Of a stretch of DNA of 40,949 nt, positions 7,935-23,781 are shown in pieces. The notes beneath the pieces are model-generated. The model worked only from the letters and a program-made list of their open reading frames with translations, did not search any database and was not told the DNA's origin. The translations under genes and the position numbers were made by a program. The DNA comes from Candidatus Woesearchaeota archaeon. GTDB lineage: Archaea; Nanobdellota; Nanobdellia; Pacearchaeales; GW2011-AR1. The stretch covers positions 1-40,949 of the forward strand of contig CAZJDG010000004.1 of NCBI GenBank assembly GCA_964544725.1, in the 5' to 3' direction. The number at the start of each line of letters is the position of its first letter. Within the stretch, counting starts at the first letter, position 1.

Positions 7935-7964
7935 ATTTTACTAAATACAAAAGACTCTTGTCAA
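7935..7964 (-). promoter_or_regulatory. Sigma70-type promoter upstream of the portal gene (TTGACA-18-TAAAAT)
   Basis: Minus strand has TTGACA at 7964..7959, overlapping the stop of 7961..8212, and TAAAAT at 7940..7935. It leaves a leader of over 100 nt containing an 8-bp hairpin (tactaaca/tgttagta). Confidence 0.55.
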
Positions 7965-8212
7965 GTGTCTCTAATGACTAACCTATGAAAAACTAAAGCC
8001 ATAGAACTTCCACTAATAGTTGTCTTAACACCACATTTGCACTTTCCCTCTCTATATACTTGTTTAGTCACAATCAATTGTCTGTTCTTTGTTTCTAATT
8101 CTAAAAACCCTTCTTTGCTAATATGACCTAATAATCTATTACAAACTGGACATCTCCAAGCATTATTTTTTAACATCACAAATTCTGGAAACTCCATCAG
8201 AGCCTTTAACAA
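7961..8212 (-). CDS. Zinc-ribbon protein, unknown function
   Basis: CPVCN...CKCG cysteine pairs. Overlaps the upstream ORF; the real start is probably the internal MLKNNAW. Confidence 0.45.
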   Translation of the reverse strand: MLKALMEFPEFVMLKNNAWRCPVCNRLLGHISKEGFLELETKNRQLIVTKQVYREGKCKCGVKTTISGSSMALVFHRLVIRDT

Positions 8213-8426
8213 GAACTTTGTCTTTTGGTAATTTCCCTATTATTTTTTTATCGTGTTTTGAGAAATATAAGCTTTGAACAAATCTGCCATCGTGCCAACA
8301 AGCAACTGGTTTTCCACCCTCATATTCGATTTTTATTTGATAATCATAATGCTTATCACAAAATTCACAAATATTCTCATTTATCTTCTTTTCTTTTTTC
8401 GGTATTTTTTGTGGCATTTTTTGCAT
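8163..8426 (-). CDS. Small Cys-containing protein, unknown function
   Basis: 87 aa with a CEFC pair; overlaps the 3' end of the HNH gene. Confidence 0.45.
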   Translation of the reverse strand: MQKMPQKIPKKEKKINENICEFCDKHYDYQIKIEYEGGKPVACWHDGRFVQSLYFSKHDKKIIGKLPKDKVLVKGSDGVSRICDVKK

Positions 8427-8884
8427 AAAGTTTTTCCATTAGAAACTATATATCTTAATTTAGGATATTTAACCCATGATTTTTTATGATGAGCTTGTAG
8501 TTCGCCCCCTCTCTGACCACAATCTTGACAGGTGTAATCATCTCTCTCAAAGACTTTATTTCTCCATTTATTATATCTCCAATCTGTATAATGCTCTCTT
8601 TTCTTTCCTCCTTTCCAATTACAACCCTTACTACCTCTTTTCATCTTGCTCAATTTTTCTTTAGTCGTTTTAGAATGATGCTTACCTAACCAAATCTTAT
8701 GTCCTTTCTGAAAACCCATAATCTTACCAGAACCATACGCCTTTTTAATAGATACTTTATTTGTCCTTCCTATCCTAAATTTATGTAATTTAGTAAGCTT
8801 TCTATCTTTAGAATTAATATTACCTTTAAGAGCTTCTGATATTTTTCTCTTTGTTTCCTCTGAGCGAGGTTTACGCTTTAACAT
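8381..8884 (-). CDS. HNH homing endonuclease
   Basis: NWKGG...WRNKVFERDDYTCQDCG...LQAHH...TLCKKCH. Has its own TTGACT-16-TATAAT promoter. Confidence 0.85.
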   Translation of the reverse strand: MLKRKPRSEETKRKISEALKGNINSKDRKLTKLHKFRIGRTNKVSIKKAYGSGKIMGFQKGHKIWLGKHHSKTTKEKLSKMKRGSKGCNWKGGKKREHYTDWRYNKWRNKVFERDDYTCQDCGQRGGELQAHHKKSWVKYPKLRYIVSNGKTLCKKCHKKYRKKKRR

Positions 8885-8929: not shown

Positions 8930-10450
8930 CTACTTTTTCCCTTTAAAAAATTTCGAGAAGAAACCGCCTTTTTTTTCATAATGAGGACAACTTTTATGTT
9001 TAATTTTACAAACAGGACACATAGCGTTTCTTTTTAATTTTGAAAAATCAGTCTTTGCTTCAATTTTTGCAATCTCTCTCTCTTTTATAAGTTGCTCATA
9101 TGCTTTCTCAAACAATAATATCCATTTCTTTCCAATTAATTCTCCACCCCAATGAAGCTCTGAAGCCCACCTATAAGCTCTGTCGACCATTGTTTTAGCC
9201 TTTTCGGGATTTTCTACTGCCCACTCCATCTGCTTTACTAAATCTTCAGTATTAGTCATAGGTCTAACCCTGTTATTGTCGTTAGCTAAAACAATATAAT
9301 CTTGTATAGATTCTCCACTTTTAGCTAATAACCCTCTCTCATTATTTCCAACAATTTCATTCAAAGCAGTATTATCAGGCATTATTACAAGTTTTTTTGT
9401 TGCCATTCCCTCTATTACAGACAAACCAAACCCTTCACCAAGAGAAGAAGAAATTACACAATCAATAGAATTATAAATCTCATTAACTATTTTTATTGAA
9501 TAGCCCTGCCCAGTAGTAAAATTAACAGGATTAGGAAAAGCCCACTCGTCTCCTTGAACAAACTCTAATTGTTGGGACATTGCAATTAAATCTAAACCCG
9601 AAACGTCTTTATATAAACAATGAAAATAAAAATAAACATCATCTTTACCTTTTTCTCTTCTTTTGTCTAACAGAGACTTACAAGCCTTCATACTATTGAA
9701 TAAGTCTTTTCTTGGTTGATTCCTATTCATATTCATAAAAATAAACTTATTTGCATTCTTCTTTCCAAAATATTTCAATCTTAATTTCATTCTCTCCTCA
9801 TCATTCATTTTTATTGAATAAAACTGTCTTGGATTTATTCCGTGATAAATAACATTTAACTTTGCCTTCAATAAAGTCAATTTTATTAAATTCTCCTGCT
9901 TTTCTTTTTCTTCTAATAAACTATCGTCATCAATTGTATAAATTTTTAAACATTCATCATAACCATATTTTGTATAGGCAATTGGGTAATCAGCCATTAA
10001 AACTGAATTATCAATCCATTCTTTCTTAGGAACAGCATCAATCGGAAAATAATACATCCATCTAAATTTTTTGTCAGGTGGTAGCGCTTTATTAGTTTCT
10101 ACAATCTTTTCACCTAAGTCAGCAATAATAAAAGTATCTTGAAGAATCCAAACTAAATCATAATCACCTGTTCCTAATTTATCTAAAAACGTCTGTCTGC
10201 CAAATAAATCTTGATAAAGAGGGTCAGGAACTAAAGAGTTCGAAGCTGGATAGATTCTGTAAGGAAACTTTTTTCTATCATAATAACTACCATCAAAATT
10301 TATACCAACAATATCAATTTCATATTTTCCAGTCTCATAAAGAACTCTTAATATATTTCTCGCCACCTGAGCAAAGCCAGTCGAACAAGTAGGACTGTCT
10401 GCTAATACTAAAATCTTTATCTTTTTTTCTACGCTTTTTGTTTTGTCCAT
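8930..10450 (-). CDS. GT-B fold glycosyltransferase (GT4-like) with a C-terminal zinc knuckle
   Basis: SSSLGEGFGLSVIEGMA carries the E-x7-E motif of retaining GT-B enzymes. The C-terminus has CPVCKIKHKSCPH. Confidence 0.8.
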   Translation of the reverse strand: MDKTKSVEKKIKILVLADSPTCSTGFAQVARNILRVLYETGKYEIDIVGINFDGSYYDRKKFPYRIYPASNSLVPDPLYQDLFGRQTFLDKLGTGDYDLVWILQDTFIIADLGEKIVETNKALPPDKKFRWMYYFPIDAVPKKEWIDNSVLMADYPIAYTKYGYDECLKIYTIDDDSLLEEKEKQENLIKLTLLKAKLNVIYHGINPRQFYSIKMNDEERMKLRLKYFGKKNANKFIFMNMNRNQPRKDLFNSMKACKSLLDKRREKGKDDVYFYFHCLYKDVSGLDLIAMSQQLEFVQGDEWAFPNPVNFTTGQGYSIKIVNEIYNSIDCVISSSLGEGFGLSVIEGMATKKLVIMPDNTALNEIVGNNERGLLAKSGESIQDYIVLANDNNRVRPMTNTEDLVKQMEWAVENPEKAKTMVDRAYRWASELHWGGELIGKKWILLFEKAYEQLIKEREIAKIEAKTDFSKLKRNAMCPVCKIKHKSCPHYEKKGGFFSKFFKGKK

Positions 10451-11337
10451 TTTAAATCTTTGTTTTTATCATTAAAAGGATTAATAAATTTTTCTCGACC
10501 AGGCATTCCGCCCCATTTTTGAATAAAATAACTTTGACATCTCGCAAACTCTTCATTGGAAGTAAAACCACCAGGATATCTCGGGTCTCCTTGTGTCTTT
10601 GAAGCAAAATGATAGAACAATGACTGAGGGCAACAAATCGCTTCTAATCCTGCCAACTTAATTCGATAATGCATATCATTATCTTCAAAATAAGCAGGAT
10701 GAAAACCTGTATCAAATAAACCAACTTTTTCAATTAATTTCTTGTTAATCATAAATGCTGAAAAATTAGGACTTGGACTTTCAGGGACACTATCTTTGTC
10801 TTTGTCATCTTTGCTAAATATATCATTAGGCGTCATGCACTCACCTCTCATATCAAGAGAAGTTAGCATCACCATTTTCTCATCCTTTTTTTCAAATCTT
10901 TCTACTAATCTCTTTACTGCATTTTGATGGAATAAAACATCATTATTAATAACAAAAACATAATCGTAATTTGCTTTAAATCCATATTCAATGCACTTAT
11001 TCCAGATTTTCTGAACTCCCATATTCTCACTATACAAAAAAGCATAAAAATCACTTCTTTCACTAATCAATCTCTCTGCTTCTTTTTTTGTATCATCAAC
11101 CGAACCATTGTCTGCTAATAAAACTTTCATTGAAATATGAATAGGAAGATTTTGTTTAAAAAAAGAATCTAAGCAAGGCCTTGTATAATCTTTCCACAAA
11201 TTAACTGCTGTCACTACTATTAGAACATTTGAGTCTTCAGGCTTAACAAAAACCGACCTTGCTTCTGGTTTAACAGAATAAGAATCAACTTTTACTGGAC
11301 CTGTCCCTGACATTGTTATTGTTTTAGTTTTAACCAT
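10429..11337 (-). CDS. GT-A fold glycosyltransferase (GT2-like)
   Basis: VVTAVN...LLADNGSVDDT and VFVINNDV motifs are typical of family 2 glycosyltransferases. Confidence 0.8.
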   Translation of the reverse strand: MVKTKTITMSGTGPVKVDSYSVKPEARSVFVKPEDSNVLIVVTAVNLWKDYTRPCLDSFFKQNLPIHISMKVLLADNGSVDDTKKEAERLISERSDFYAFLYSENMGVQKIWNKCIEYGFKANYDYVFVINNDVLFHQNAVKRLVERFEKKDEKMVMLTSLDMRGECMTPNDIFSKDDKDKDSVPESPSPNFSAFMINKKLIEKVGLFDTGFHPAYFEDNDMHYRIKLAGLEAICCPQSLFYHFASKTQGDPRYPGGFTSNEEFARCQSYFIQKWGGMPGREKFINPFNDKNKDLKWTKQKA

Positions 11338-11753
11338 TGTTTTTTTAATCTATCTAATAACCACGAACTCGACTGAACTTTTCCTCCACCAACACCAAAT
11401 CTCATCTCAATCCCCAACTCTTCACAAATTACTCTTTCAGGTATATTCCCAAGCGTTCTATCACCACCCTTGGCAAATATGTCTGGCTTAATAGAAGCGA
11501 GAGTCTTAATAACAGTATGGTCTTTATCAATACATTTAACAACTTTATCAATGTCTTTCATGGCTTGAATTATATCCTTTCTTTCCTGATAAGGCATAAA
11601 AATAAACCCCTTTTTGTGTTCTAAAAAATTATCTGAATTTAAAATACAAATAACTCTTCCATCCTTTCCTGCTAATTGCCTTGCACCCTTAAAATACTCA
11701 ATATGACCAAAATGAACTGGGTCAAATCCACCAGATATTACTATTGTCTTCAT
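11316..11753 (-). CDS. Sugar-phosphate nucleotidyltransferase, cytidylyltransferase fold (RfaE domain II / HldC-like)
   Basis: ISGGFDPVHFGHIEYF (HxGH motif), then KGGDRTLGNIPE and a SSS segment, matching the layout of heptose-1-phosphate adenylyltransferases. Confidence 0.7.
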   Translation of the reverse strand: MKTIVISGGFDPVHFGHIEYFKGARQLAGKDGRVICILNSDNFLEHKKGFIFMPYQERKDIIQAMKDIDKVVKCIDKDHTVIKTLASIKPDIFAKGGDRTLGNIPERVICEELGIEMRFGVGGGKVQSSSWLLDRLKKQWLKLKQ

Positions 11754-12301
11754 TTTTTTTGTCCGATTATATACAAATACTGTAATCGACCTTTACTATA
11801 AAATGCTTTAGTTTCAAGAATATGACAAAAATAACGAACCCACTCAAGTCCATTATAAAAACCTGATATTCTTCTTCCTACATCTCTATCTTTCCCATAT
11901 CTTAAAAACCCATTACCAGGCAAACCACAAACAAGAATCCCATCTTTTTTCAAAATTCTTCTCATTCCTTTAAATGCTTCTATTATAACACCCTCTCTTT
12001 CGCTAACATATAAATCATCAACCATTTTTATATACCCTTTTATCTGTTCAAAAACACCATTAAAAATAACCATATCAAATTCATCATTCTTAAATTTCGA
12101 ACAGGTAATATCGTCAACAACATCTGGTTCTAATTTTTCATCAATGTCAGAAATAATATATTCTGAATTTTTAAAATCAACTTTGTAATTCCAAAAACCT
12201 GATTTACCAACATCTAAAACTTTTCCTCCTTTCGGAATCATATCTTCTAAACGAGGAATAATTACTTGATTCAAAAATTCCCTCCATTTACTGACCTTCA
12301 T
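11750..12301 (-). CDS. Class I SAM-dependent methyltransferase
   Basis: GGKVLDVGKSG motif I, then an acidic post-I residue and LKKDGILV. ATGA-type overlaps on both sides. Confidence 0.65.
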   Translation of the reverse strand: MKVSKWREFLNQVIIPRLEDMIPKGGKVLDVGKSGFWNYKVDFKNSEYIISDIDEKLEPDVVDDITCSKFKNDEFDMVIFNGVFEQIKGYIKMVDDLYVSEREGVIIEAFKGMRRILKKDGILVCGLPGNGFLRYGKDRDVGRRISGFYNGLEWVRYFCHILETKAFYSKGRLQYLYIIGQKK

Positions 12302-13281
12302 AAATTTTTTTGTATCTCTGAATACTTAAATGTTATATGATTCTTTTGACCTTTAAGGATTTTAATTAAATCCTCACACCTATTTTTCCAAGTATGATGT
12401 GCTTGAACATACTTAAACGCTTCTCTTCTTATTTTATCTCTCATATCTTTTCTTGACATAAAAAATTTATATAGTTTAATCGCCTCTTCAATAGTATTAA
12501 AATAAACCAAATGTTTGCCTTGTATCAAAATCTCATCTAATCCTTTCGACCTATGAGCCAAACAGAAAGCACCAGTGCCAGTAATAATAAAAGGTCTGTC
12601 TGAACTAAAATGCTTAATATGGTCAACATAATCATAACTTAAACAAATTTTTGAAGAAGCATACACTGGAACATTCATCTTTTGACTGTTTTTACCATAT
12701 GCTTTAGGTTCACAAAAAACCTTTAAAGGCAATCCTGCTTCTTTCAATTTCTCAACACATTTTACTCTTCCTGGATATTGAACAAGATTCATTGACCCAA
12801 AAAAGACAAACTCATTAGAAAAATTACGCTGAAAATAAGGAAGTGAATGATGAGTAAAACTGGCATAAGGAAAAACAATGCATTTTTCTCTCTCTACCTT
12901 CCACAATTTTGCGTGTTCATCTAATTGATAGTCTTGATTAAAAACAATCAAATCAACAAAGTTTAAATCCACCTTTGGTCTTTCAGATACATCTTTATAG
13001 TCTCCTTCTTGATAAACAAACTTAAAATTTAATCTTCCTTTTAACTCACGCATCACTTCAAGAACTCTCTCAACATCGTGATTATGTCCATCAATCAAAC
13101 ACTGACTAAAAACCAAATCAGGTTTTAACATAAAAATCTTTTGTTTTGTTTGTGAAATAGTGTTTTTAACTAATTCAACATTAAAAAAATCGTGTCCTAA
13201 TTTTCTAAAACCTTGCTTGATTCCTTTTGTAATGCTCTTATATGGCTCACTCAAATACTGACCTAATCCAACTACTATCAT
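12298..13281 (-). CDS. CgeB-like / GT-B family glycosyltransferase
   Basis: The C-terminal segment (LVYFNTIEEAIKLYKFF...RDKIRREAFKYVQAHHTWKNR) resembles the CgeB-type glycosyltransferase group 1 domain. Confidence 0.55.
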   Translation of the reverse strand: MIVVGLGQYLSEPYKSITKGIKQGFRKLGHDFFNVELVKNTISQTKQKIFMLKPDLVFSQCLIDGHNHDVERVLEVMRELKGRLNFKFVYQEGDYKDVSERPKVDLNFVDLIVFNQDYQLDEHAKLWKVEREKCIVFPYASFTHHSLPYFQRNFSNEFVFFGSMNLVQYPGRVKCVEKLKEAGLPLKVFCEPKAYGKNSQKMNVPVYASSKICLSYDYVDHIKHFSSDRPFIITGTGAFCLAHRSKGLDEILIQGKHLVYFNTIEEAIKLYKFFMSRKDMRDKIRREAFKYVQAHHTWKNRCEDLIKILKGQKNHITFKYSEIQKNL

Positions 13282-13823
13282 AATGATTTAGCAAATAACG
13301 TATTACCTATTATTTTGTGAACAACCTCTCCTTTTAAAAAACTTAAAAGTTCTTCTTTCGTATATTCCTTAATATGTAATTTTGGTTGAATAGTATTAAC
13401 TAATACCAAATGACCACTTTCTTTTAAAACCCGATAACATTCATCTATCGCTTTCTTAGGGTTTTCAAAATGGTCAAATGTAGAAATGATATAAACTATA
13501 TCAAAAAAATCATCTGGAAAAGGCATCTCTTCAGCAAACCCTACTCTCACCTTTTCGATTCCCTTATCAATTGGGTCTAATCCATAATAATCAACTCCAA
13601 TATCGCCTTTAATAAATTCCTTAAATCTACAATCATAACAACCAACATCTAAAATCTTTCCGAAAGCAGGTTGAAATTCAAGTGTATATTTAAAAATATC
13701 CTTTGTCCCAAAATCATTAAAAACATTATCTTCATAACCTTTAATCATCCTATTTTGCATTTTAATCCACTTAGGACTTTGTTGCTTTCCCAATGAGCTT
13801 GTATTTTTCTTTCCATTCTTCAT
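13278..13823 (-). CDS. Class I SAM-dependent methyltransferase
   Basis: KILDVGCYDC motif I and FDIVYIISTFDHFENP...LKESGHLVLV. The start is probably the internal MQNRMIKGY, which removes the 53-nt overlap. Confidence 0.7.
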   Translation of the reverse strand: MKNGKKNTSSLGKQQSPKWIKMQNRMIKGYEDNVFNDFGTKDIFKYTLEFQPAFGKILDVGCYDCRFKEFIKGDIGVDYYGLDPIDKGIEKVRVGFAEEMPFPDDFFDIVYIISTFDHFENPKKAIDECYRVLKESGHLVLVNTIQPKLHIKEYTKEELLSFLKGEVVHKIIGNTLFAKSL

Positions 13824-14313
13824 ATGCCTTCATATGTTCATTAAATTTAATATCCTTAAAACCGAACCTTTTTAATAAAAGAATTAAGTATTGCTCATTA
13901 AACAATGTTTTATGTAATCTTGCTTCTATTTCTTTCCTATCTTTATAATTTAATTTCAAGTCTTTTTGTCCATAAACATTATTCCAAAGAGAATCAACAT
14001 CACTTCTTTTTTCATTATCCCAATAATAACCAGCAAGTAATAAAGCACATTCCATTCCATTAGGAGTTCCAAATCTAAACACCCCACCTCTTTTTAAAAT
14101 CCTATAAATTTCGTGAAAAACTATCACCATATTAACTTGGTCAAAATGCTCTAAAAATTCTGTGCAACTGACTTCATCAATACTACTATCTTCAAATGGC
14201 AATCCAACCAAAATATCAGCAACAATATCAGGATTCACTTTTTCTCTATTGTCAACATTTATATAATCCTCTAACTTGTAATCTCCACACCCTAAATTTA
14301 CTTTCTTAAACAT
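13771..14313 (-). CDS. Class I SAM-dependent methyltransferase
   Basis: VNLGCGDYKLEDYINVD, FEDSSIDEVSCTEFLEHF and LKRGGVFRF form a Methyltransf_11-like pattern. Confidence 0.7.
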   Translation of the reverse strand: MFKKVNLGCGDYKLEDYINVDNREKVNPDIVADILVGLPFEDSSIDEVSCTEFLEHFDQVNMVIVFHEIYRILKRGGVFRFGTPNGMECALLLAGYYWDNEKRSDVDSLWNNVYGQKDLKLNYKDRKEIEARLHKTLFNEQYLILLLKRFGFKDIKFNEHMKAYEEWKEKYKLIGKATKS

Positions 14314-15131
14314 TTTATATAAATTTCTCTGTATTGTTTAGTTATTTCTTTCCAACTATATTTCTCTAAAATCTGTTTTCTCGCGTAAACCTTTCGAATT
14401 CCTTTCATTAGGCCCTCTACGCTTCTCTCTACCAAGACAACACCATCTAATTCATCTGCTATCCCAGTGTTTGTCGAAATCACTGGTATATTCATCGCCA
14501 GCGCTTCTAAGGTAGGATTATGACAACCCTCACCTAAACTCGCTATTACTAAACAATCAAACTCACTATAAATCTCAGGCATTTTATGGTGAGGAACTAT
14601 TTTATGAGGATACCTATTACCATCGTGTAAAAAATTAACTCCCAGTCTCTTACACGCTTCTTCTATTAAATGAAATCCTTTATATTCATCTCTAATGCCA
14701 ACAAAACCAACATTGAAAGCATAATTAGGTTTAAAGACTCTTTCATCAACACCATTAGGAATATAGACCGACCCTTTAACTAATTTCTGAAGCTTCTTGC
14801 TGAAAGCAATAACTGCCGCAGAATTCTTATAAATAAAATCCATAACTTCTTTCTTGTCCCACCATTCTTCAATTGACCTATGACTTGCAACAGAAGTTAT
14901 AATCTTATTAGGGTTCTTTTTAAAAATATCGTAAAAAATAGACAAGCCTCCACTGTAAAGAATATGAACTATATCATACTGCTTCAATAATTCATCAGCA
15001 TTATTTTTAAACTCTAAATTGGTCACTATACTGACTTCATCTTGAATCAATCTCTTTTTTAAGTTCTCTGCTCTATGAGAAGTTGCCCAGCTTTTATCAT
15101 CATATTTAACTAATAAAATTTTAAGACTCAT
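14298..15131 (-). CDS. GT-B fold glycosyltransferase (GT4-like)
   Basis: ASLGEGCHNPTLEALAMNIPVIST carries the E-x7-E motif. Confidence 0.8.
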   Translation of the reverse strand: MSLKILLVKYDDKSWATSHRAENLKKRLIQDEVSIVTNLEFKNNADELLKQYDIVHILYSGGLSIFYDIFKKNPNKIITSVASHRSIEEWWDKKEVMDFIYKNSAAVIAFSKKLQKLVKGSVYIPNGVDERVFKPNYAFNVGFVGIRDEYKGFHLIEEACKRLGVNFLHDGNRYPHKIVPHHKMPEIYSEFDCLVIASLGEGCHNPTLEALAMNIPVISTNTGIADELDGVVLVERSVEGLMKGIRKVYARKQILEKYSWKEITKQYREIYIKCLRK

Positions 15132-15285
15132 ATTTTTTAAATCTCTTTACATAATTAAAAACTGAATGCCTATCTATTCCTAAAAGTCTTGCTATTTCAT
15201 TTTTATAACAACCTGCTTTATACTGCTCTTGTATTTCTTCTATTAAGACTTTTGGTAATTTAAACCATCTTCTTTCTTTTTTCAT
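15121..15285 (-). CDS. 54-aa helix-turn-helix protein (Hin/resolvase-type HTH), not in the ORF track
   Basis: My translation is MKKERRWFKLPKVLIEEIQEQYKAGCYKNEIARLLGIDRHSVFNYVKRFKKYES. Its ATG overlaps the upstream stop (ATGA at 15282..15285) and its last 11 nt overlap the next start. Confidence 0.55.
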   Translation of the reverse strand: MKKERRWFKLPKVLIEEIQEQYKAGCYKNEIARLLGIDRHSVFNYVKRFKKYES

Positions 15286-15815
15286 AATGAAGTTATTTCA
15301 CCAAATTTAGGTAATACTACATGAAGCTTATCATTTTCAAATCTGTAAGCACTCCACCAATGGAAACTCACAACATCATTCCCTTCCCACTCACCCTGAG
15401 AAACATTACAAAACTTCAATCCTAACTCTTTACATACACTTCTTATTACTTCTGACTCTCTATTCCAAGGAGCAAAGAAAGTGTCAATCCTTTTATTCGC
15501 AGGAAAATCTTCATACTTTTTCTGATACATTCTTGTTAAATTCTCTTTATAGTAATCAAGCGCTTTCTTTAAATCATAATAAACCTCATCTCTTGGCATC
15601 TTGCTATAATCTTTATGCTCCCACCCATGAAGCCCAACAGCAATATTAGGCTCTGAAGCAATGTATTTCCAAATAGCATAATTCTCTCTAAAATCTTTCA
15701 TTAAAATAGCAATCGTGTGAGTCTTATCGACCTTTTTAAAAACCTCATTGATTTGGCGAAAAAGCCAAAAATCAGTATGAACATTTACGTCATCGTCACG
15801 GTATATTGTATTCAT
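15282..15815 (-). CDS. Polysaccharide deacetylase-like (NodB-type) protein
   Basis: RDDDVN near the N-terminus and GLHGWEH resemble the Asp and His motifs of carbohydrate esterase 4 enzymes. Confidence 0.5.
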   Translation of the reverse strand: MNTIYRDDDVNVHTDFWLFRQINEVFKKVDKTHTIAILMKDFRENYAIWKYIASEPNIAVGLHGWEHKDYSKMPRDEVYYDLKKALDYYKENLTRMYQKKYEDFPANKRIDTFFAPWNRESEVIRSVCKELGLKFCNVSQGEWEGNDVVSFHWWSAYRFENDKLHVVLPKFGEITSL

Positions 15816-16750
15816 TTTAAAATGTCTTCATATATTTTTTTAATCTTTTTACAAACAGCTTCCCAAGTGAAATCATTAGAGTTAAGCCAGTTCGACAAAT
15901 CCTGACTATACCCTTTATCCCATTGTTTTGTTATTTTTGCCTTAATGTCATTCATATCCTTAATATTTGCTATTTCAATATGAGGTAAATCTTTTCCTCC
16001 TAATGCTAAATTTGTATAAACTATATTACAACCTGAAGCACCTGCCTCTAATAAAGTATAACTAAATACTTCCCAGTTAGATAAAGAACAAAAAACTCTT
16101 GCGTGTCCATAAAGATAAGGCATCGTCTCTCTCGGCACTTCACCAATACAGATAACTTGTGGATTCACTTTCTTGATTTTTTCAACAAGACCACTCTCGA
16201 ATTTAGGACCAACAATAAGTAAAGGATAACCTAACTCTTTACACGCCTGTGCTAATAAAAGAAATCCTTTACCGCTCATCATTCTACCTGCTCCCATTAC
16301 ATAATTTCTATCAGTCAGTCCAATAACATCATAAAACATCTTATCAATTCCATTTGGAATAATGTGAAATTTCTTATCATCTCTAAAGCTGATTCTCTCG
16401 CCAATCAAATTCTTTTCTGCTTCTGACATACAAATAATTGCAGAAGCATCTTTACACAATTCATTCTGCTCCTGAGAAGTGAATTGAGGGCATTCAACTG
16501 GATGGAAAATAGAATTTACAACAATCTTCTTTCCATATATCTTTGCATTTTGCCAATGCCCCTTTGTCCAAGTCATTGAAAGATGAACTAAATGAACTAT
16601 ATCAACATTCTTTGCCTCTTCTTCATTAATTCTATGAGAAAACCTAACATCAACACCCAGTTCTCTCAAACCTTCAATTATCTTTTGTATTTTAATAGCA
16701 TCACCTCCCATCCAACTGGAGGGGTCTCTATTTTGAAATAAAACTTTCAT
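15812..16750 (-). CDS. GT-B fold glycosyltransferase (GT4-like)
   Basis: SNWEVFSYTLLEAGASGCNIVYT carries the E-x7-E motif. ATGA overlap with the downstream gene. Confidence 0.8.
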   Translation of the reverse strand: MKVLFQNRDPSSWMGGDAIKIQKIIEGLRELGVDVRFSHRINEEEAKNVDIVHLVHLSMTWTKGHWQNAKIYGKKIVVNSIFHPVECPQFTSQEQNELCKDASAIICMSEAEKNLIGERISFRDDKKFHIIPNGIDKMFYDVIGLTDRNYVMGAGRMMSGKGFLLLAQACKELGYPLLIVGPKFESGLVEKIKKVNPQVICIGEVPRETMPYLYGHARVFCSLSNWEVFSYTLLEAGASGCNIVYTNLALGGKDLPHIEIANIKDMNDIKAKITKQWDKGYSQDLSNWLNSNDFTWEAVCKKIKKIYEDILK

Positions 16751-16756
16751 AAATTT

Positions 16757-16948
16757 TTAATAACTAAAAGAAGGATAAGTTAAGCTAACTGCTTTACTTT
16801 CACACTTAGGACACACTAAACTCCGTCTATTAACTTCTCTATTTCCAACCTCTCGTTCTTCAGTCCAAACATTCAAACACCCTCTACATCTAAACTCAAT
16901 CATTATTGTCTTTGGTTCAAGACCCTTTTTTATCTTTATTCTTCTCAT
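16757..16948 (-). CDS. Zinc-ribbon protein
   Basis: 63 aa with CRGC...CPKC. Confidence 0.5.
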   Translation of the reverse strand: MRRIKIKKGLEPKTIMIEFRCRGCLNVWTEEREVGNREVNRRSLVCPKCESKAVSLTYPSFSY

Positions 16949-17189
16949 ACTCGTCTATTGATTCATCTGCTTTCTTAATTATCCCTTCGCTATAAACTAT
17001 CTCTTTGTTCAAATTAGAAATAACACCATCTGCTCTCATATCTTTATTTGTTATTTTTTCTTTAGTCCAAAAAGCAATTTCCAATTCTTTATTAACGATA
17101 TTCTGAATTTCTTTTAATCTTCTTGACACTACTGTATCAAACTCTATTTTATTTCTTTGTTTATTTGACAATGACATAATTTTGACCAA
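16917..17189 (-). CDS. Hypothetical protein (coiled-coil character)
   Basis: 90 aa, overlaps both neighbours within the operon. Confidence 0.45.
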   Translation of the reverse strand: MVKIMSLSNKQRNKIEFDTVVSRRLKEIQNIVNKELEIAFWTKEKITNKDMRADGVISNLNKEIVYSEGIIKKADESIDEYEKNKDKKGS

Positions 17190-18123
17190 CCTTAAGAGGA
17201 ATAAATTTTTTCTCGTATTTATACTCTTTCAAAAATATCCTCTCTGCTTCTCTGTAAATAACTTCGTCCCAGCCTTTAGGAACTTTATTAAAGGCAGGAC
17301 CCGTGCTATCGCTTACCCAATCTTTATTCTTCTCGGCCCAATCTTCAGGCTTCTCAATCCCTAAATGCTTCTTTGACCACTCTTCTGAAACACTATGATG
17401 TTTCTTTTCAGCGTTTACAGTCTGTCCTGATATATGGTCGCACTCAATTCCCATTACACCTACTCTAAACCCTTTTTCCAATACCTGACAAGACATCAAT
17501 CTATCGTAAAAATGATGAAGAGGAAAATTCTCTCTAAATCCTATTTGAAACAAACATTGTCTCTTAAATATCATCGAGCAACCATCAACCAATGCGCCCG
17601 GTTGTAAATCAGTAATCCTTTTTCCGTGAATCTCTGCTTTCGAACCTTTCCAATCTTTCACCTGCCGACCTTGAAAATTAGACATTGTTCCCATTCCTCT
17701 ACCACTCCAATTATCTATTTCATTTGACCCGATAAAGCCAATCAATCCTAATTTCGGGTCTTTCTCAAATTCAGCGATAACTCTCTTATCCCATCCTTTC
17801 TCGTAAATAAAAAAATCACTATGAAAGTAAGCAATAACTTGCCCTTTAGCGATTTTAAATGCCTGCTCATAAATAGGATAACAACCTATATTATGGTCAT
17901 TAGACATAACTTTTAGTTCTTGAAGCTTTCTTGCTTCTTTCCAGTCTATTCCTATACTATTCAAAACGTCTTTTATTTTCTGTCCACCCTCATCACTATC
18001 ATTGTCAATAATAATAAATTCAGTCTCAGCAGAATTCTCTAAGTTCTTAACCATCATATTCAAACTCTCGACAAACAAACGGTATTGGTTTAACACAGGA
18101 ACGACTATTGTTAGTTTTGTCAT
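17161..18123 (-). CDS. GT-A fold glycosyltransferase (GT2-like)
   Basis: TIVVPVLNQ...FIIIDNDSDEG and AYFHSDFF motifs. Confidence 0.8.
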   Translation of the reverse strand: MTKLTIVVPVLNQYRLFVESLNMMVKNLENSAETEFIIIDNDSDEGGQKIKDVLNSIGIDWKEARKLQELKVMSNDHNIGCYPIYEQAFKIAKGQVIAYFHSDFFIYEKGWDKRVIAEFEKDPKLGLIGFIGSNEIDNWSGRGMGTMSNFQGRQVKDWKGSKAEIHGKRITDLQPGALVDGCSMIFKRQCLFQIGFRENFPLHHFYDRLMSCQVLEKGFRVGVMGIECDHISGQTVNAEKKHHSVSEEWSKKHLGIEKPEDWAEKNKDWVSDSTGPAFNKVPKGWDEVIYREAERIFLKEYKYEKKFIPLKVGQNYVIVK

Positions 18124-18124
18124 T

Positions 18125-18406
18125 TTATTTTTTAGTCTCTGCGAAAAATTCTTTTGTTAAATTATTACACTTCTTACAATGGTCAAGAATTTTAAACACT
18201 ACGCTTTTAAATCTCATTAACTCATAAGGAGTTCCTTTTAAAGCAATTTTAAGAAGTTCTTTAATTTCTTCAGGAGTTCTCTCATATGCCACACCACATT
18301 TAATAACTTCATCTTCTCCAATCTGCTCACCGCATTTATCACATTTATATAATCTCATAATTCTGAATGGAAGTCGGTTAGTTACATAATCGCAACAAAC
18401 CAGCAC
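18125..18406 (-). CDS. Zinc-ribbon protein
   Basis: CDKCGEQ...CKKC. The track start is GTG; the more likely ATG is at 18358 (MRLYKCDKCG). Confidence 0.5.
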   Translation of the reverse strand: MLVCCDYVTNRLPFRIMRLYKCDKCGEQIGEDEVIKCGVAYERTPEEIKELLKIALKGTPYELMRFKSVVFKILDHCKKCNNLTKEFFAETKK

Positions 18407-18522
18407 CCATTTTTATCTAATCTTATTATCCTCGACCTTTTAATGACTCAACCTTGGACTAAATTAGCACTCAAAGTCTAACTTATCGACCTTGAAAATA
18501 GTCCAAGATTCAAACATTAATC

Positions 18523-18747
18523 TTACTCTCCTGAACCCTCTTCACTTCCTTCTTCGCCCTCTTTTCCTTCTTCGCCCTCTTTCTTCTCTTCACTATCTTC
18601 TTCCCCTGTTTTTTCTTCCTCTTTCTTTTCAAGTCCCTCTGCATATTCACCTAAAGCTTTATTGATTCCTTCTTTTTTAGATTCTTCGTTCTGTTCTGAA
18701 TCATCTAAAACTTCGTTGATTTTTGTTTTTAATTCTTCAAAATTCAT
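18523..18747 (-). CDS. Very acidic 74-aa protein (E/G/K/S low-complexity tail)
   Basis: Ends GEEDSEEKKEGEEGKEGEEGSEEGSGE. Bracketed by the only two noncoding gaps inside the glycan island. Confidence 0.5.
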   Translation of the reverse strand: MNFEELKTKINEVLDDSEQNEESKKEGINKALGEYAEGLEKKEEEKTGEEDSEEKKEGEEGKEGEEGSEEGSGE

Positions 18748-18791
18748 TTTATTTATTTGATTTTAATTTACAATAATCGACCTTTATCAAA

Positions 18792-19262
18792 TTACAATCT
18801 CTTATGACACTCAACACAATGCTTGACATTATGCTTTAAATAATTTTTAATCAACTTCGACCTTATATTAGAAGCAGAGATAGTCTTTAAATAAGGCAAG
18901 ACAATAGTCTTTCCTCTGATACTTTTCATATACTCTATTTCTTTTTTTTTCGTATCTTTCCATTCTTTACAGATAACATAAACATCTGACTTAAACTTCT
19001 TTAATAGCTTTAAAGGACTAAACCCATCCGCAGGCACGACTTGGTCGACAAAACCAATTGCCCTAACTATCTTGATTCTATACTTATATGGAATCACAGG
19101 AATCTTCTTTTTATACTTCCTATATAGTTTATCAGTATTAACTCCAACAATCAAAAATGTTCCTTGAGACTTAGCTTTCTGTAAAAATCTAATATGCCCA
19201 TAGTGAAATAAGTCAAAACTTCCTTGTGTGAATACTATCTTTTTCTTCATAACCCTAACCAA
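18792..19262 (-). CDS. Cytidylyltransferase (TagD-like glycerol-3-phosphate / alcohol-phosphate cytidylyltransferase family)
   Basis: QGSFDLFHYGHIRFLQKAKSQGTFLIVGVNTD and VDQVVP match the HxGH cytidylyltransferase layout. Confidence 0.75.
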   Translation of the reverse strand: MVRVMKKKIVFTQGSFDLFHYGHIRFLQKAKSQGTFLIVGVNTDKLYRKYKKKIPVIPYKYRIKIVRAIGFVDQVVPADGFSPLKLLKKFKSDVYVICKEWKDTKKKEIEYMKSIRGKTIVLPYLKTISASNIRSKLIKNYLKHNVKHCVECHKRL

Positions 19263-20311
19263 TGTTTATTTTCTTCTTTTATCATCCATTCAACCATTTT
19301 AATAAATGCCTCATCTAACGTTAATTTTGAATGATAACCAAATTTAGCTAATTTCTCACCTGACATAGCATAACGCAAATCATGTCCTGGTCTTGTCTTA
19401 TGAAAATCGACACAATCAAATGGCAAATCATAATCTCTTCCCTCAGCCTTTATAACTCCCTTAATGATTTCAGCTAAATCAACAACACTTCTTTCTTTAC
19501 CAACAATATGATAAATTCCCCAACCTCTATCAAACTGATTTTCTTTATTAATAATCTCTACACTAATACTCTTTGTCAAAAAGATTAAAGCACTCCCTAC
19601 GTTTCTTGCGTGTATCCAGCATCTTGAACTAAAACCAGTCTGAGGCGTCCCGTGAATAGTTATTTTTTCATTCTTAAAAATTGCTCTAACTGTCTTCGGG
19701 ATAAACTTCTCAGGATGTTGTCTTTCTCCAAATACATTCATTGTTCTCGTTATAATAACTGGTAGTTTATGAGAAAAAGCAAATGCCTTTGAAATCGCTT
19801 CTGCACCCTCTTTTGAAGCGGCATAAGGATTAGACGGATTACAAACATCACTCTCTTTGTAAAACACTTTCTCAGGCGCAGGACCAAAAACCTCATCAGT
19901 CGAAAAATAAATATACTTTGTCAAATCTGATTGATATTTTCTCAAATACTCTAACAAATTTGCAGTTCCTACAACATTCGACATAACAAATGGAATTGAG
20001 TCTTCTAAACTCCTATCAACGTGACTCTCTGCGGCTAAATGCCAAACATAATCAATCTTCCCAATATCTTTATGTTTTGTTTCAGGGATTGAAGCCTGTA
20101 AGTCGTGAAAAACAAACTTAACTCTATCTCTTGTTTTATTCCAAATATTAATATCAGCTATATTCTTTGGAATTCCCTTAATTCTGTTTAAATCACCAGC
20201 ATACGTTAAAGCATCTAATATGATTATTTCCCAATCAGTTTCTTTTAAAACGCTTTCAATAACATGATGACCAATAAAACCACACCCTCCTGTTAATAAT
20301 AATCTTTTCAT
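19247..20311 (-). CDS. Extended SDR, RmlB-like NDP-sugar 4,6-dehydratase
   Basis: TGGCGFIGHH Rossmann motif, LDALTYAGDLNRI, STDEVFG, and the YAASK catalytic YxxxK. The start overlaps the terL stop (ATGA). Confidence 0.8.
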   Translation of the reverse strand: MKRLLLTGGCGFIGHHVIESVLKETDWEIIILDALTYAGDLNRIKGIPKNIADINIWNKTRDRVKFVFHDLQASIPETKHKDIGKIDYVWHLAAESHVDRSLEDSIPFVMSNVVGTANLLEYLRKYQSDLTKYIYFSTDEVFGPAPEKVFYKESDVCNPSNPYAASKEGAEAISKAFAFSHKLPVIITRTMNVFGERQHPEKFIPKTVRAIFKNEKITIHGTPQTGFSSRCWIHARNVGSALIFLTKSISVEIINKENQFDRGWGIYHIVGKERSVVDLAEIIKGVIKAEGRDYDLPFDCVDFHKTRPGHDLRYAMSGEKLAKFGYHSKLTLDEAFIKMVEWMIKEENKHWLGL

Positions 20312-21993
20312 AATTCTTTTTTATATTTATCAACCCAATAATCTAATGTTCGACCTTTATCTTTTTCTTCTTCTTTTTTACTTTTCATAAATCCCCAAAA
20401 TCCTCCTGCTCCTTTCTTTTTATCTCTTGGCCCTACTATCATCTCACAAACTCCAGCAACAGCATCAGCGACATCTTTACTTCCACCTGCAGGATGGTCA
20501 ACTTTTCTTCCTTTTATTAATTCAAGTCTCTTGTATTCTTTAATAAACCACTCGAATTTATACATATCAATTCTTCCTGTATGTAGCATCTCTTTTAAAG
20601 TATCATATGCGCTTGTCGTTCTATCAACTGACAAAACATAGGCGTTATAACCTTTCTCTTTTAATATCTGAATTGAATCAACACTTTGCCACCCATCATA
20701 ACTTACCTCAAAAATAGGAAACCCTCTCTCTTGTAAGGTGTAAACAATCTGTCTAACGTCACTAAATTGTATCTCACCACCAGGCGGAGCTTCTATCCTC
20801 ATCATTAAATCAATAGCAATCTTTATTCTCGATTCGCCATCAACTTCTTCTTCACCTGCTACTCTACCCATCGCTAACCCACAAGCATCTTTATTTTTAG
20901 CTAAGTCAATATGAATGTATCTTGGTTCATTATCATCGCATTTAAACCACTCTTTTAGCTGTTCTTTTTCATCAACAGGATTTTCTTTATCATTATGAAT
21001 TCTCGTTACTACATCTGCATCTCTATCAAATGCCTCTAATACAAACGATGGTTTTGCACCAAAATCTCTTAATGCTTTCTCAGGATTACTCTCAAATGCT
21101 TTCTGAAAATCTATTGGAATGTCATCCCATATTTCCAATGGCTTTCCTTTATCATCCTTTGAAACAACGAAACTAAAGGTTTTACTCGACATTCTATTTC
21201 TATCTTTTACTTCCCACGTCTTATATCTTGAAGTATAAATATAAGGAACTTTCAATCCTTTCTCGTAATGTGTATTGATAAAGTCATCTACATATCTTGG
21301 TGCTGAAATAATGAACACAAACCCTCTATCACCAAATCTTGAAATAATCCTATTTTTCATTGTGTGATAAATATCCTCAGCAATTGATTTCTGTTCATTA
21401 TCTAAATACCAGGCCGCTTCATCTAAACCTCCAAAGATTACATTCATTCCTATTGGCATTGTCTCTTGGGAGTTTCCACAATAAAGTGTTATGTTTTTCT
21501 TCTCAAATCTTATCTCTGTCTGCAATATCTCAGGTTTATAGCTCTGAAAGAATTGTGAATTTTCTACGAACTTTCTATTACTCGCAAAAATAACATTTTT
21601 AGCCTGAGTTGCTGTCGGTCCCATATTCACTACTGCTATCGGCTTATCGTTTGTTAATCCAAAATACTTATGAGGACTCTTCAAGCAAAGCAACCAATGA
21701 ACGTATAATAAACCCAATATAGAAGCTAAATAACTCTTACCACTACCAATACCCCATTCTAAAACAGCTTCAGTAATCTCTTTATTTAAAATCCCATTCC
21801 ATATTGTATTGCCTTCTTCTTTTACTTTCTCATAAGTATCTTCTCCTATTCCTAAATAATATGGACTATCAATGAACTCACTAAAGCTCTGACAAGGCAT
21901 TCTTTCAAACTCAGAATTTTTCAATGCAAATAAAAGCGTTCTTCTCGCCTCAGGATTCAATTCCTTGACTATTTGTTTGATTTTCTTTGACAT
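20308..21993 (-). CDS. terL: Terminase large subunit
   Basis: 561 aa with a Walker A-like GIGSGKSY, a Walker B-like FGGLDEAAW and a C-terminal RNaseH-like nuclease region (HIDLAKNKDACGLAMG). Confidence 0.9.
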   Translation of the reverse strand: MSKKIKQIVKELNPEARRTLLFALKNSEFERMPCQSFSEFIDSPYYLGIGEDTYEKVKEEGNTIWNGILNKEITEAVLEWGIGSGKSYLASILGLLYVHWLLCLKSPHKYFGLTNDKPIAVVNMGPTATQAKNVIFASNRKFVENSQFFQSYKPEILQTEIRFEKKNITLYCGNSQETMPIGMNVIFGGLDEAAWYLDNEQKSIAEDIYHTMKNRIISRFGDRGFVFIISAPRYVDDFINTHYEKGLKVPYIYTSRYKTWEVKDRNRMSSKTFSFVVSKDDKGKPLEIWDDIPIDFQKAFESNPEKALRDFGAKPSFVLEAFDRDADVVTRIHNDKENPVDEKEQLKEWFKCDDNEPRYIHIDLAKNKDACGLAMGRVAGEEEVDGESRIKIAIDLMMRIEAPPGGEIQFSDVRQIVYTLQERGFPIFEVSYDGWQSVDSIQILKEKGYNAYVLSVDRTTSAYDTLKEMLHTGRIDMYKFEWFIKEYKRLELIKGRKVDHPAGGSKDVADAVAGVCEMIVGPRDKKKGAGGFWGFMKSKKEEEKDKGRTLDYWVDKYKKEL

Positions 21994-22719: not shown

Positions 22720-23184
22720 CTATTGGCATATTAAACTTCCATCACCATCTCTAATTTCTAATACTTCAAAGCTGTCTTCCGGACTAATGAAATTACCATA
22801 AACGGTTTCAACATACACCCCCAACCAAGCGTGTTTCCTGTCTTTGCTAATGAAAACAGCACTTTCAATTCCCAGCTCTTCTAACCTTAATTGTAACTCT
22901 TTGGCGTGGTCGTAGCAATCATAATCTTCACTATAACCCTTTCCTGCTATTTCTGAAACTGCTTTTTGAAATGTATTATATTTCTGACACTCTTCTAACT
23001 TACTTTCTGCCACTATTAAATCAAATTCCAAACCTAATGCTCTCTCGCTTGTGCTTTTATATGCTTCAAAACGCTGAAATGCAATAAATAGCAATAAAGC
23101 AACAACAAAAATTAAAACAAGACAACCAATAACTTCTGCTGTTCTAATTATAGATTTTCTTATTTTTTCTTTTTTTTCTTCCAT
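22720..23184 (-). CDS. Membrane-anchored transglutaminase-like cysteine peptidase (putative)
   Basis: Start moved to ATG 23184 (MEEKKEK...) to remove the 73-nt overlap. Has an N-terminal TM segment (VIGCLVLIFVVALLLFIAF). The C-terminal domain has the ordered DCYDHA (Cys), KHAW (His) and SPED (Asp). Confidence 0.5.
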   Translation of the reverse strand: MEEKKEKIRKSIIRTAEVIGCLVLIFVVALLLFIAFQRFEAYKSTSERALGLEFDLIVAESKLEECQKYNTFQKAVSEIAGKGYSEDYDCYDHAKELQLRLEELGIESAVFISKDRKHAWLGVYVETVYGNFISPEDSFEVLEIRDGDGSLICQ

Positions 23185-23186
23185 AA

Positions 23187-23582: not shown

Positions 23583-23781
23583 CTCTTTCAAATGCCCACT
23601 CTAATAATTTACAAAAAAGACATATACTTCCTACGGCTATTCCAATAAGCACCAAAAGGCTGATAGTTACTAATACAAAACTATGATTATGCTCCTGAGC
23701 AAAATCTCCTACAATCCAACTAAAGTATATCAAAAATACACTTCCTAAAATTATTCTTGCTATTACTTTTTTATAATTCAT
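23575..23781 (-). CDS. Two-TM small membrane protein (holin-like)
   Basis: 68 aa with two hydrophobic helices and a charged C-terminus (EWAFERDE). Immediately upstream of the 3D-domain gene. Confidence 0.5.
   Translation of the reverse strand: MNYKKVIARIILGSVFLIYFSWIVGDFAQEHNHSFVLVTISLLVLIGIAVGSICLFCKLLEWAFERDE

Follow-up and report, generated by a model that had tools for sequence, protein, structure and literature searches.

A glycan-synthesis locus of conserved position and variable content in the head module of an uncultured phage lineage

The window analysed here is a 40,949-nt stretch of DNA (contig CAZJDG010000004.1 of assembly GCA_964544725.1, filed under Candidatus Woesearchaeota archaeon). 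All its genes are on the minus strand. Between the large terminase gene terL and a block containing an HNH endonuclease gene and the portal gene there is an island of 18 co-oriented genes (8930-20311), which encode six glycosyltransferases, an RmlB-like 4,6-dehydratase, two cytidylyltransferase-like enzymes, two clear methyltransferases and a weak third one, and a NodB-like deacetylase. An earlier reading, made from the letters alone (the sequence-only reading), had described about 19 co-oriented genes; the orientation is correct and the number is 18. The gene calls of the public record (ENA ERZ23499938, scaffold_432, 43.5 kb) agree, with 18 genes from terL to the HNH gene (8381-8884).

The island genes are tightly packed. 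The start of the dehydratase gene overlaps the terL stop (ATGA) and 12 of the 17 junctions from terL to the last glycosyltransferase gene overlap. The only intergenic gaps in the island are 44, 116 and 150 nt long; within the one of 150 nt the public record calls a gene for 54 amino acids (aa). There are no terminator-like sites between terL and the island. These data bear out the proposal that the island is coupled to terL. The two best minus-strand sigma70-like sites (11 of 12 matches each) are in intergenic gaps, at 8926-8899 before the HNH gene and at 7964-7935 before the portal gene, and are suggestive of promoters. We mention only these two because promoter-like sites in total (69) are not above the number in shuffled controls (77.7). 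There is no break in GC content or GC skew at the island (GC 0.29-0.35 inside, 0.27-0.39 outside), and a recent foreign insertion was rejected on this ground.

The gene nearest the portal, 8930..10450 (-), encodes a 506-aa B736L-like GT4/GT-B glycosyltransferase (Pfam Glycos_transf_1; phrog_2170, E 4e-34), referred to here as the anchor GT4. Its E-x7-E motif is at residue 339, and E339 and E347 are invariant in 55 homologs. A profile of these homologs matches PDB entry 3oy2, the chlorovirus NY-2A enzyme B736L, over its full length (E 2.5e-21). Profile positions 15-430 align with 3oy2 residues 6-394, covering both domains including the acceptor-side N-terminal one; the remaining PDB matches cover the donor-binding half only. 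The AF2 model (pLDDT 93.8) has a GT-B fold and its top Foldseek matches are all GT-B/GT4 enzymes. The best is again 3oy2 (target-normalised TM 0.82, with about 15% of the structurally aligned residues identical), followed by PglA, BshA, MshA and PimA, with sucrose-phosphate synthase also among the neighbours. The anchor GT4 is a member of a known viral family, that of B736L-like enzymes and PHROG 2170 ('glycosyltransferase'). Binding studies indicate that guanosine diphosphate (GDP)-mannose is the preferred donor of B736L (PMC9614988).

The C-terminus of the anchor GT4 (8930-9020) has two elements, a SEC-C-like zinc knuckle with the sequence CPVCKIKHKSCPH and, after it, a basic/aromatic tail, GGFFSKFFKGKK. 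Many homologs share the knuckle, and only the closest ones have the tail. This end of the protein could bind membrane, nucleic acid or a partner protein. The enzyme has 131 strong metagenomic homologs. Inteins (an Intein_splicing plus a LAGLIDADG domain) interrupt two anchor GT4 homologs, P0055 and P0077, which is unusual for a gene filed as 'auxiliary'.

Directly upstream of the anchor gene is a gene for a 302-aa GT2 (GT-A) glycosyltransferase, GT2-302 (10429..11337, -; Glycos_transf_2, E 2e-12). It has the same place directly upstream of the GT4 gene in relatives, at 35-56% identity, and the pair is also present in Synechococcus phage S-CBS4. The second GT-A enzyme is of the Glyco_tranf_2_5 type (GT2_5, 320 aa; 17161..18123, -; PF13712/PF00535). 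It is 44-56% identical to its counterparts in three related loci (L008, L010 and L011) and has 155 metagenomic homologs, and tblastn found no match to it in 50,697 phage records. Its AF2 model (pLDDT 96.5) has a GT-A fold with no close solved relative (Foldseek TM at most 0.56). A specific assignment from structure was rejected because the matches are generic GT-A enzymes (among them polypeptide GalNAc-transferases, TarP and majastridin) that do not discriminate between acceptors. Two further GT4-type enzymes are sub-lineage-specific. One is a 312-aa GT-B enzyme (15812..16750, -; Glycos_transf_1, E 3e-13; E-x7-E at residue 227) with a homolog only in L083/L163 (68%), and the other has 277 aa (14298..15131, -; Glyco_trans_1_4, E 2e-11; E-x7-E at residue 201). 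The sixth protein is CgeB-type and glycosyltransferase-like (327 aa; 12298..13281, -; Glyco_trans_1_2, E 2e-17), and its homologs are at the same position in L161 and L163. All three GT4s match PF00534/PF13692, and Pfam supports the six earlier assignments (three GT4, one CgeB-like and two GT2).

The first gene after terL encodes an RmlB-like nucleoside diphosphate (NDP)-hexose 4,6-dehydratase of 354 aa (19247..20311, -; Pfam Epimerase/GDP_Man_Dehyd, E 7e-43). The TDE and YxxxK motifs are present and all ten of its best PDB matches are RmlB (E 7e-44). Against TIGR01181 in NCBIfam (deoxythymidine diphosphate (dTDP)-glucose 4,6-dehydratase) it scores 222.7 bits with a cut-off of 365.1, and the other island enzymes, too, stay below the NCBIfam equivalog cut-offs. 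It is 64-66% identical to environmental and cellular proteins (those named are from a Pacearchaeota and a Pacebacteria metagenome-assembled genome, MAG) but only 41-44% identical to the dehydratases of sister phages, which indicates cassette exchange. The closest homologs of the island proteins are not all host lipopolysaccharide or capsule enzymes: those of the core enzymes are viral and those of the dehydratase are cellular. Pfam shows no RmlA (NTP_transferase), no RmlC (cupin epimerase) and no separate RmlD in the island. Because the RmlB-like enzyme is without these partners, the island needs host sugar nucleotides, and the pathway is not self-contained as had been claimed.

The two cytidylyltransferase-like nucleotidyltransferases carry HxGH motifs. 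One (156 aa, HYGH; 18792..19262, -; CTP_transf_like, E 9e-18) has ethanolamine-phosphate and glycerol-3-phosphate cytidylyltransferases as its best PDB matches. The other (145 aa, HFGH; 11316..11753, -; CTP_transf_like, E 4e-15) belongs to the conserved core, being at the same position in L008, L011 and L012 at 44-66% identity, and its best PDB match is ethanolamine-phosphate cytidylyltransferase. Their former labels, HldC/RfaE-II-like and TagD-like, are tentative at most. The best NCBIfam match of both is rfaE_dom_II (106 and 61 bits, in the order given above, with a cut-off of 181.5), and against TagD they score 75 and 40 bits (cut-off 165). GmhA, HldA, GmhB and a TagB/F-type transferase were not found in the island by Pfam. 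A complete rhamnose or heptose pathway was rejected, as there is one step of each only. From their family resemblance, both enzymes may activate phospho-alcohols rather than sugars.

Two S-adenosylmethionine (SAM)-dependent methyltransferases are clear, one of 180 aa (13771..14313, -; Methyltransf_11, E 2e-8) and one of 181 aa with an ILDVGC motif (13278..13823, -; Methyltransf_11, E 6e-16). A third protein (183 aa; 11750..12301, -) is a marginal case: it has a VLDVGK motif and matches Pfam methyltransferase families only at E ~4e-3, and its counterpart in L161 has a weak Methyltransf_11 match. The 177-aa NodB-like polysaccharide deacetylase (15282..15815, -; Polysacc_deac_1, E 1.3e-5, 25.6 bits with a cut-off of 23.1) has the DD and HxxxH motifs, the latter as HGWEH. 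The earlier list of accessory enzymes is therefore sound for the dehydratase and two methyltransferases, and weakly supported for the third methyltransferase and the deacetylase. The remaining island proteins are small. There is an acidic one of 74 aa (pI 4.2; 18523..18747, -) with no Pfam match, a Cys-rich one (18125..18406, -; 93 aa by open reading frame (ORF) and 77 aa in the public record, where it is called) also with no Pfam match, and a pair of overlapping ORFs of 90 and 63 aa (16757..17189, -), the second with CxxC...CxxC, which are called in the record and have a sub-threshold zinc-ribbon-like Pfam match. The small Cys-rich, zinc-ribbon-like proteins (16757-16948 and 18125-18406) are without a family match, and relatives have small ORFs in comparable places, such as the one for an 80-aa zinc ribbon that follows terL in L008.

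None of the island proteins has a membrane-spanning segment (Kyte-Doolittle, 19-residue window; the maximum is 1.36 and the threshold 1.6). The rest of the 41-kb window encodes only small proteins with one or two hydrophobic segments. Neither the window, with the island, nor eight related islands encode a multi-pass membrane protein, and Pfam shows no Wzx, Wzy, ABC (ATP-binding cassette)-transporter or priming-transferase family in the window or in those eight islands. The absence of membrane segments and export components, which the sequence-only reading had judged by eye, is thus confirmed and extends to the relatives. The island is a phage-encoded, soluble, multi-enzyme glycan-assembly line, laid out for co-expression with the packaging and head genes.

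Eight relatives share the portal-MuF-protease-capsid module of the window (L001, L008, L010, L011, L012, L013, L161 and L163), giving nine versions with the window itself. An anchor GT4 homolog is just upstream of the portal gene in all eight, and it is the only island gene common to all. The GT4-carrying relatives have the same head-module order at 41-79% identity, and capsid identity to the window is 63-79% where the capsid gene is within the fetched stretch. The usual genes ahead of the anchor GT4 are a GT2 and a cytidylyltransferase gene. Beyond these the content differs. In L008 there are a dehydratase, an RGP-family protein and three GT2s, with a DNA methylase between GT4 and portal; in L011 GroES, GroEL, a dehydratase, an RGP protein, GT2_5 and a second epimerase; in L012 a formyltransferase, a GT2, epimerases, a DegT aminotransferase, an O-methyltransferase and an NTP transferase; and in L010 GT2_5 and two methyltransferases. 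The minimal version, L001, has GT4 alone, and L163 is larger than the window version, with seven glycosyltransferases and a radical SAM enzyme. An RGP mutase and additional GT4s are also among the variable genes. The GroES/GroEL genes of L011 are at 2064-4574, between terL and the sugar genes, and the radical SAM gene of L163 is at 4491-5327.

The distance from the end of terL to the start of the portal gene varies accordingly, being 3.3, 5.6, 6.2, 10.1, 10.5 and 12.5 kb in the loci with both ends captured. Only the closest sub-lineage (L161, L163/L083) has counterparts of the window genes at 11750-16750 and 18792-19262. Three contigs that share terL only and are without the head module (L002, L003 and L004) have no GT4, and in L002 there is a large ORF directly after terL. 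This shows that the GT4 core goes with the portal/capsid module and not with terL. Taken together, the data describe a locus of conserved position and variable content in an uncultured phage lineage. The sequence-only reading had called such cargo at the terL-portal junction unusual. This holds for characterised phages, in which only small relatives are found, but not for the uncultured lineage, in which the cargo is common.

At least 389 IMG/VR contigs encode a relative of the anchor GT4. We looked at the contexts of the best 80 of these contigs, near-duplicates included, with Pfam counts taken from ORFs chosen by size and position. A GT2-302 homolog is present in 54 of the 80 loci, and in 41 of the 80 the portal gene is among the first two large ORFs, at most 6 kb downstream and on the same strand. 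In the same 50,697 phage records tblastn finds homologs of the anchor GT4 in five records representing three phages, Tetrasphaera phage TJE1 and the Synechococcus phages S-CBS4 and S-EIVl, at 34%, 26% and 25% identity, respectively, with 83-88% of its length aligned. In TJE1 six sugar genes, among them those for a nucleotidyl transferase, an epimerase, a methyltransferase and a GT4, form a cluster 2 kb upstream of terS-terL-portal. In S-CBS4 a GT4-GT2-methyltransferase set is between the portal and the protease/capsid genes. The records of these two phages annotate the genes as glycosyltransferases only, and a literature search for S-CBS4 and glycosyltransferase gave no paper. The island itself is thus not found in characterised phages. 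Literature searches also did not find a fixed-position, content-variable locus (up to about 12 kb) in a head module, the spread of a head-module glycan locus through an uncultured lineage, or a conserved GT4-GT2 core that such a lineage shares with isolated phages. The individual enzyme families of the island are ordinary. Among cells, distant (about 25% identity) and shorter GT4 homologs are conserved across Verrucomicrobia (L069 and about 45 other loci). In L069 (4921-10220, Prosthecobacter fluviatilis) the neighbours of the homolog are a second GT4, a Ser/Thr kinase and a polysaccharide pyruvyl transferase, and the context is not that of a prophage.

The upstream boundary of the island, terL (20308..21993, -; phrog_2), is 32% identical to Gordonia phage terminases by tblastn (E 2e-58). 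On the other side (7961..8884, -) there are an HNH/NUMOD3 endonuclease gene (167 aa, 8381-8884; Pfam HNH and NUMOD3) and two small ORFs of 87 and 83 aa, which are conserved between island and portal in L001, L008, L010 and L011. The head module then continues, as assigned by Pfam and all on the minus strand, with the portal (6187-7815), a MuF-like protein (5361-6209), an HNH protein (4850-5368), an XkdF-type protease/scaffold (3017-4570) and an SU10-type major capsid protein (1954-2973). There are three HNH-like genes in all (8381-8884, 4850-5368 and 24587-25111, -), two with NUMOD3 and two inside the head module. The one between glycosyltransferase and portal is absent from the closest relatives L161 and L163, which fits mobile homing endonucleases. 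The XkdF-type protein has a Glu/Lys/Thr-rich low-complexity stretch of about 200 aa that gives rise to spurious ORFs on both strands (3615-4280, 3668-4078, 3619-3813 and 3823-4041).

After the capsid gene and a 129-aa gene there is a gene for a Ser/Thr/Asn-rich protein of 1337 aa, which occupies 1-1458 (-) of the window and continues beyond it (L007 18993-21521). It has many N-x-S/T triplets and an N-terminal hydrophobic segment, KKLIIIISTLLSFVALGVFAAIF. Neither Pfam nor PHROG gives a match for it; it may be a fibre or an ejection protein and is a candidate glycan acceptor. At 22720-23781 (-), just upstream of the putative small terminase gene, there are three small proteins with one or two hydrophobic segments, which may form a lysis cassette. 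A 334-aa protein (36956-37960, -) matches the PHROG families of Cas4-domain exonuclease (E ~1e-11). The window ORFs that were scanned gave neither a recognisable DNA polymerase or integrase nor a DNA base-modification enzyme, and no tRNA was found.

Clues to the host are mixed. Gene starts between 1400 and 22600 have almost no Shine-Dalgarno-like motifs and are preceded by A-rich leaders, for example AAAAAAATTT ATG, which suggests a host not reliant on Shine-Dalgarno-led initiation. The bin labels of homologous contigs conflict, naming a Dictyoglomus MAG, Patescibacteria, Woesearchaeota and Pacearchaeota.

What does the island make, and on what? The best reading, which we hold tentatively and rate a little short of an even chance, is that it builds an oligosaccharide on a predicted virion-protein acceptor. 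We favour a virion protein because the link between locus and head module persists in divergent phages, because there is no export or priming component in nine versions, because the anchor GT4 is related to a chlorovirus enzyme and because phage-encoded virion glycosylation is established in mycobacteriophages. The coupling to terL, the changing content at a fixed position, the portal close to the GT4 in 41 of the 80 loci, the placing of the sugar genes in S-CBS4 and TJE1 and the inteins of two GT4 homologs also count in its favour. The anchor GT4 would put the first sugar on the acceptor from a host-made sugar nucleotide; it is probably the initiating enzyme because it is the only one kept in the minimal version. 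The GT2 and accessory enzymes would then lengthen and decorate the chain. The expected glycan would contain a 6-deoxy or 4-keto-6-deoxyhexose, a de-N-acetylated amino sugar and O-methyl groups, perhaps with phospho-alcohol substituents from donors activated with cytidine diphosphate. The acceptor would most likely be a co-produced cytoplasmic virion protein, such as the capsid, a decoration protein or a fibre, and swapping of the variable part would give each lineage its own surface glycan.

Several observations weigh against this reading. The capsid protein ends ...EPYWYKIGGLAT, without a Ser/Thr-rich C-terminal extension. In 29 of the 80 IMG/VR loci (19 after dereplication), which belong to phages of 45-130 kb, the GT4 is near baseplate, RecA and helicase genes and not near the portal; in these loci, too, it is among other sugar enzymes. 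A shared origin with the mycobacteriophage enzymes was rejected, as GT4, GT2-302 and GT2_5 have no mycobacteriophage match in the 50,697 records. We infer late expression of the island from gene layout only. The acceptor of B736L is not established and the NY-2A capsid glycan is without mannose (PMC9614988). Finally, GT4s without membrane segments commonly use lipid-linked or small-molecule acceptors, and enzymes of these kinds (PglA, PimA, BshA and MshA) are the next structural neighbours; the basic zinc-knuckle tail, for its part, could attach the anchor GT4 to membrane or nucleic acid.

A rival explanation, which we consider unlikely, is host envelope remodelling. Here soluble or peripheral phage enzymes would work on the inner side of the membrane and modify lipid-linked intermediates of the host (polyprenyl-phosphate-linked precursors of O-antigen, capsule, teichoic acid or S-layer glycan), with a host priming enzyme, flippase and ligase completing the process; the changed surface would block superinfection or keep progeny off debris. 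The sequence-only reading had taken the lack of membrane segments to argue for a cytoplasmic acceptor. That step fails, because GT4s of the PglA and PimA type are soluble or peripheral and yet use lipid-linked or membrane acceptors, so that missing segments do not exclude such an acceptor, and these two are the structural neighbours that follow B736L. The basic/aromatic tail looks to us like a membrane-binding peptide. The weak best NCBIfam matches of the accessory glycosyltransferases are of exopolysaccharide, teichuronic-acid, lipoteichoic-acid-anchor, Agl16 and PglJ types, and the cytidylyltransferases resemble TagD, ethanolamine-phosphate and choline-phosphate enzymes of envelope polymers. 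The dehydratase is closest to cellular enzymes, the distant cellular GT4 homologs are in a cellular glycan-type neighbourhood, and the 24 sugar genes of phage P-SSM2 have been interpreted in this way (PMC1079782).

However, a priming transferase, flippase, polymerase or transporter is present in none of the nine island versions. The island is coupled to terL in the head module and is expected to be expressed late, when a change of the host surface would be of little value, and no integrase or repressor signature of a temperate phage is seen in the 41 kb. The anchor GT4, GT2-302 and GT2_5 families are mainly on phage-sized contigs. In addition, the core stays with the portal/capsid module in lineages whose bins point to very different hosts, which fits dependence on one host pathway poorly.

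Glycosylation of phage DNA, with sugars placed on a modified base around packaging as protection from host nucleases, is in our view very unlikely. Phage GT-A and GT-B enzymes related to those of lipopolysaccharide and teichoic acid do attach mono- to trisaccharides, including heptose, to 5-hydroxymethylcytosine, and such clusters can adjoin terminase, epimerase and extra glycosyltransferase genes (bioRxiv 10.1101/2023.12.21.572611). The island adjoins terL, the zinc knuckle and basic tail of the anchor GT4 could bind nucleic acid, and L008 has its DNA methylase between GT4 and portal. Against this, the window ORFs of at least 119 aa and 10 kb in the eight relatives gave no match to a thymidylate-synthase-like, TET/5mYOX, dCMP-hydroxymethylase or C5-methyltransferase family, and intact hypermodification pathways usually cluster (bioRxiv 10.1101/2023.12.21.572611). 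The window covers part of the genome, and precursor enzymes could lie elsewhere. Six glycosyltransferases with methyltransferases and a deacetylase exceed the described DNA glycans, which go up to trisaccharides, and the 50 structures most similar to the anchor GT4 do not include the T4 DNA glucosyltransferases. Equally improbable is another soluble target (a free glycoside, host protein or small molecule modified in counter-defence or to redirect the sugar-nucleotide pool): many anchor GT4 homologs have weak precomputed matches to PF20706 ('GT4 in conflict systems') and the neighbours BshA, MshA and sucrose-phosphate synthase are small-molecule glycosyltransferases, but the window GT4 itself has no PF20706 match at E <0.01, a multi-enzyme, methylating, lineage-variable line fits a surface glycan better than one counter-defence reaction, and the persistent head-module linkage would be left unexplained.

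Returning to the virion-protein glycan, a bolder version of it, which is rather doubtful, is that this hypervariable head-module locus works like an O-antigen cluster, with a conserved anchor shared with chloroviruses, a glycan on the virion, exchangeable cassettes and no lipid carrier or export. In that case up to seven glycosyltransferases would give each phage its own virion 'serotype', and the hosts may be small-genome, low-GC organisms, for example Patescibacteria or archaea of the DPANN group. If a virion glycan is indeed made, such glycans would be a widespread trait of environmental phages, subject to diversifying selection, with particle stability, adhesion, evasion of host or grazer recognition and avoidance of re-adsorption as possible drivers. 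A B736L-like GT4 beside a portal gene would then be a bioinformatic marker for these phages, and the soluble, lipid-carrier-independent assembly enzymes would be of glycoengineering interest. Should the target be host envelope or DNA, the island would nevertheless show that strategy on an unusually large and modular scale, and within a head module. What is new here is a glycan locus of conserved position and variable content in the head module of an uncultured phage lineage, with a chlorovirus-related anchor enzyme.

Among known systems, the chloroviruses glycosylate their capsid protein with their own cytoplasmic enzymes, without endoplasmic reticulum or export machinery (PMC9614988). The likeness lies in a virus-encoded soluble GT-B/GT4 enzyme (NY-2A B736L and PBCV-1 A546L; PDB 3OY2/3OY7) and in the presence, in the same genomes, of further glycosyltransferase and methyltransferase genes that serve a methylated glycan. 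There are differences: identity to B736L is about 15%, and the acceptor of B736L may not be the capsid protein (PMC9614988). The C-terminal zinc knuckle and basic tail are extra in the phage GT4, and the virus here is a tailed phage with a prokaryotic host. Chlorovirus glycosylation genes are scattered and do not form a head-module cassette.

To our knowledge, glycosylation of phage-particle proteins has been shown only in mycobacteriophages, with two or three genes and with a known benefit that concerns mammalian antibodies. According to two papers that cite Freeman et al. 2023, glycosyltransferases of the phages Che8, Corndog and Myrna modify capsid and tail-tube proteins in the cytoplasm (PMC12363180, PMC12619734), with glycans at the C-termini of capsid and tail-tube proteins in the second of these (PMC12619734). 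A mechanism of the proposed kind is thus on record for tailed phages. Che8-type phages of cluster F1 have two putative glycosyltransferases (PMC11256854), compared with 18 genes here. With regard to C-terminal glycan sites, the capsid protein of the window has no such Ser/Thr-rich extension and the tail genes lie outside the window. Unlike in the mycobacteriophage case, shielding from mammalian immunity is an implausible selective force for an environmental phage.

The isolates TJE1 and S-CBS4 resemble the window in having anchor GT4 homologs in small sugar clusters near head genes. Their clusters have two to six genes instead of 18 and are not between terL and portal. Phage P-SSM2 shows that many sugar genes are not in themselves new: this lytic phage has 24 of them, for epimerases, transferases and synthases (PMC1079782), and the earlier claim of a pathway much larger than those described for phages is overstated. 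P-SSM2 is, however, a T4-like myovirus whose sugar clusters are not at the terL-portal junction. It is absent from the phage-record matches to the GT4 and GT2s, and no direct homology comparison was made.

Bacterial O-antigen and capsule clusters share with the island a fixed position, conserved flanks, variable glycosyltransferases, sugar-nucleotide enzymes, methyltransferases and cassette exchange. In contrast with the Wzx/Wzy and ABC types, no priming phosphoglycosyltransferase, flippase, polymerase, chain-length regulator or transporter is found in the nine versions, and the island is in a virus head module. The spore crust of Bacillus subtilis belongs to a protein shell that soluble enzymes, CgeB and those of a rhamnose-type pathway among them, glycosylate within the mother cell and with no export step. 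The CgeB-type domain is present in the island, but the resemblance to the CgeB and Sps proteins of the crust is at the domain level only and no other Sps/Cge homologs were identified, so this is an analogy and not membership. Of the RmlABCD dTDP-L-rhamnose pathway the island has an RmlB-like enzyme only. The Gtr systems of temperate phages consist of GtrA, GtrB and a membrane Gtr(type) protein, and the island has neither a membrane-spanning protein nor a matching Pfam family. The thymidylate-synthase-like or 5-methylpyrimidine dioxygenase gene that defines phage DNA hypermodification clusters was not found among window ORFs of at least 119 aa or in 10 kb in the relatives. In summary, one defining feature each of the mycobacteriophage-type, exported-polysaccharide, Gtr and DNA-hypermodification systems was looked for and not found; we place the island in none of these and rate it as falling among the virus-encoded glycosylation systems.

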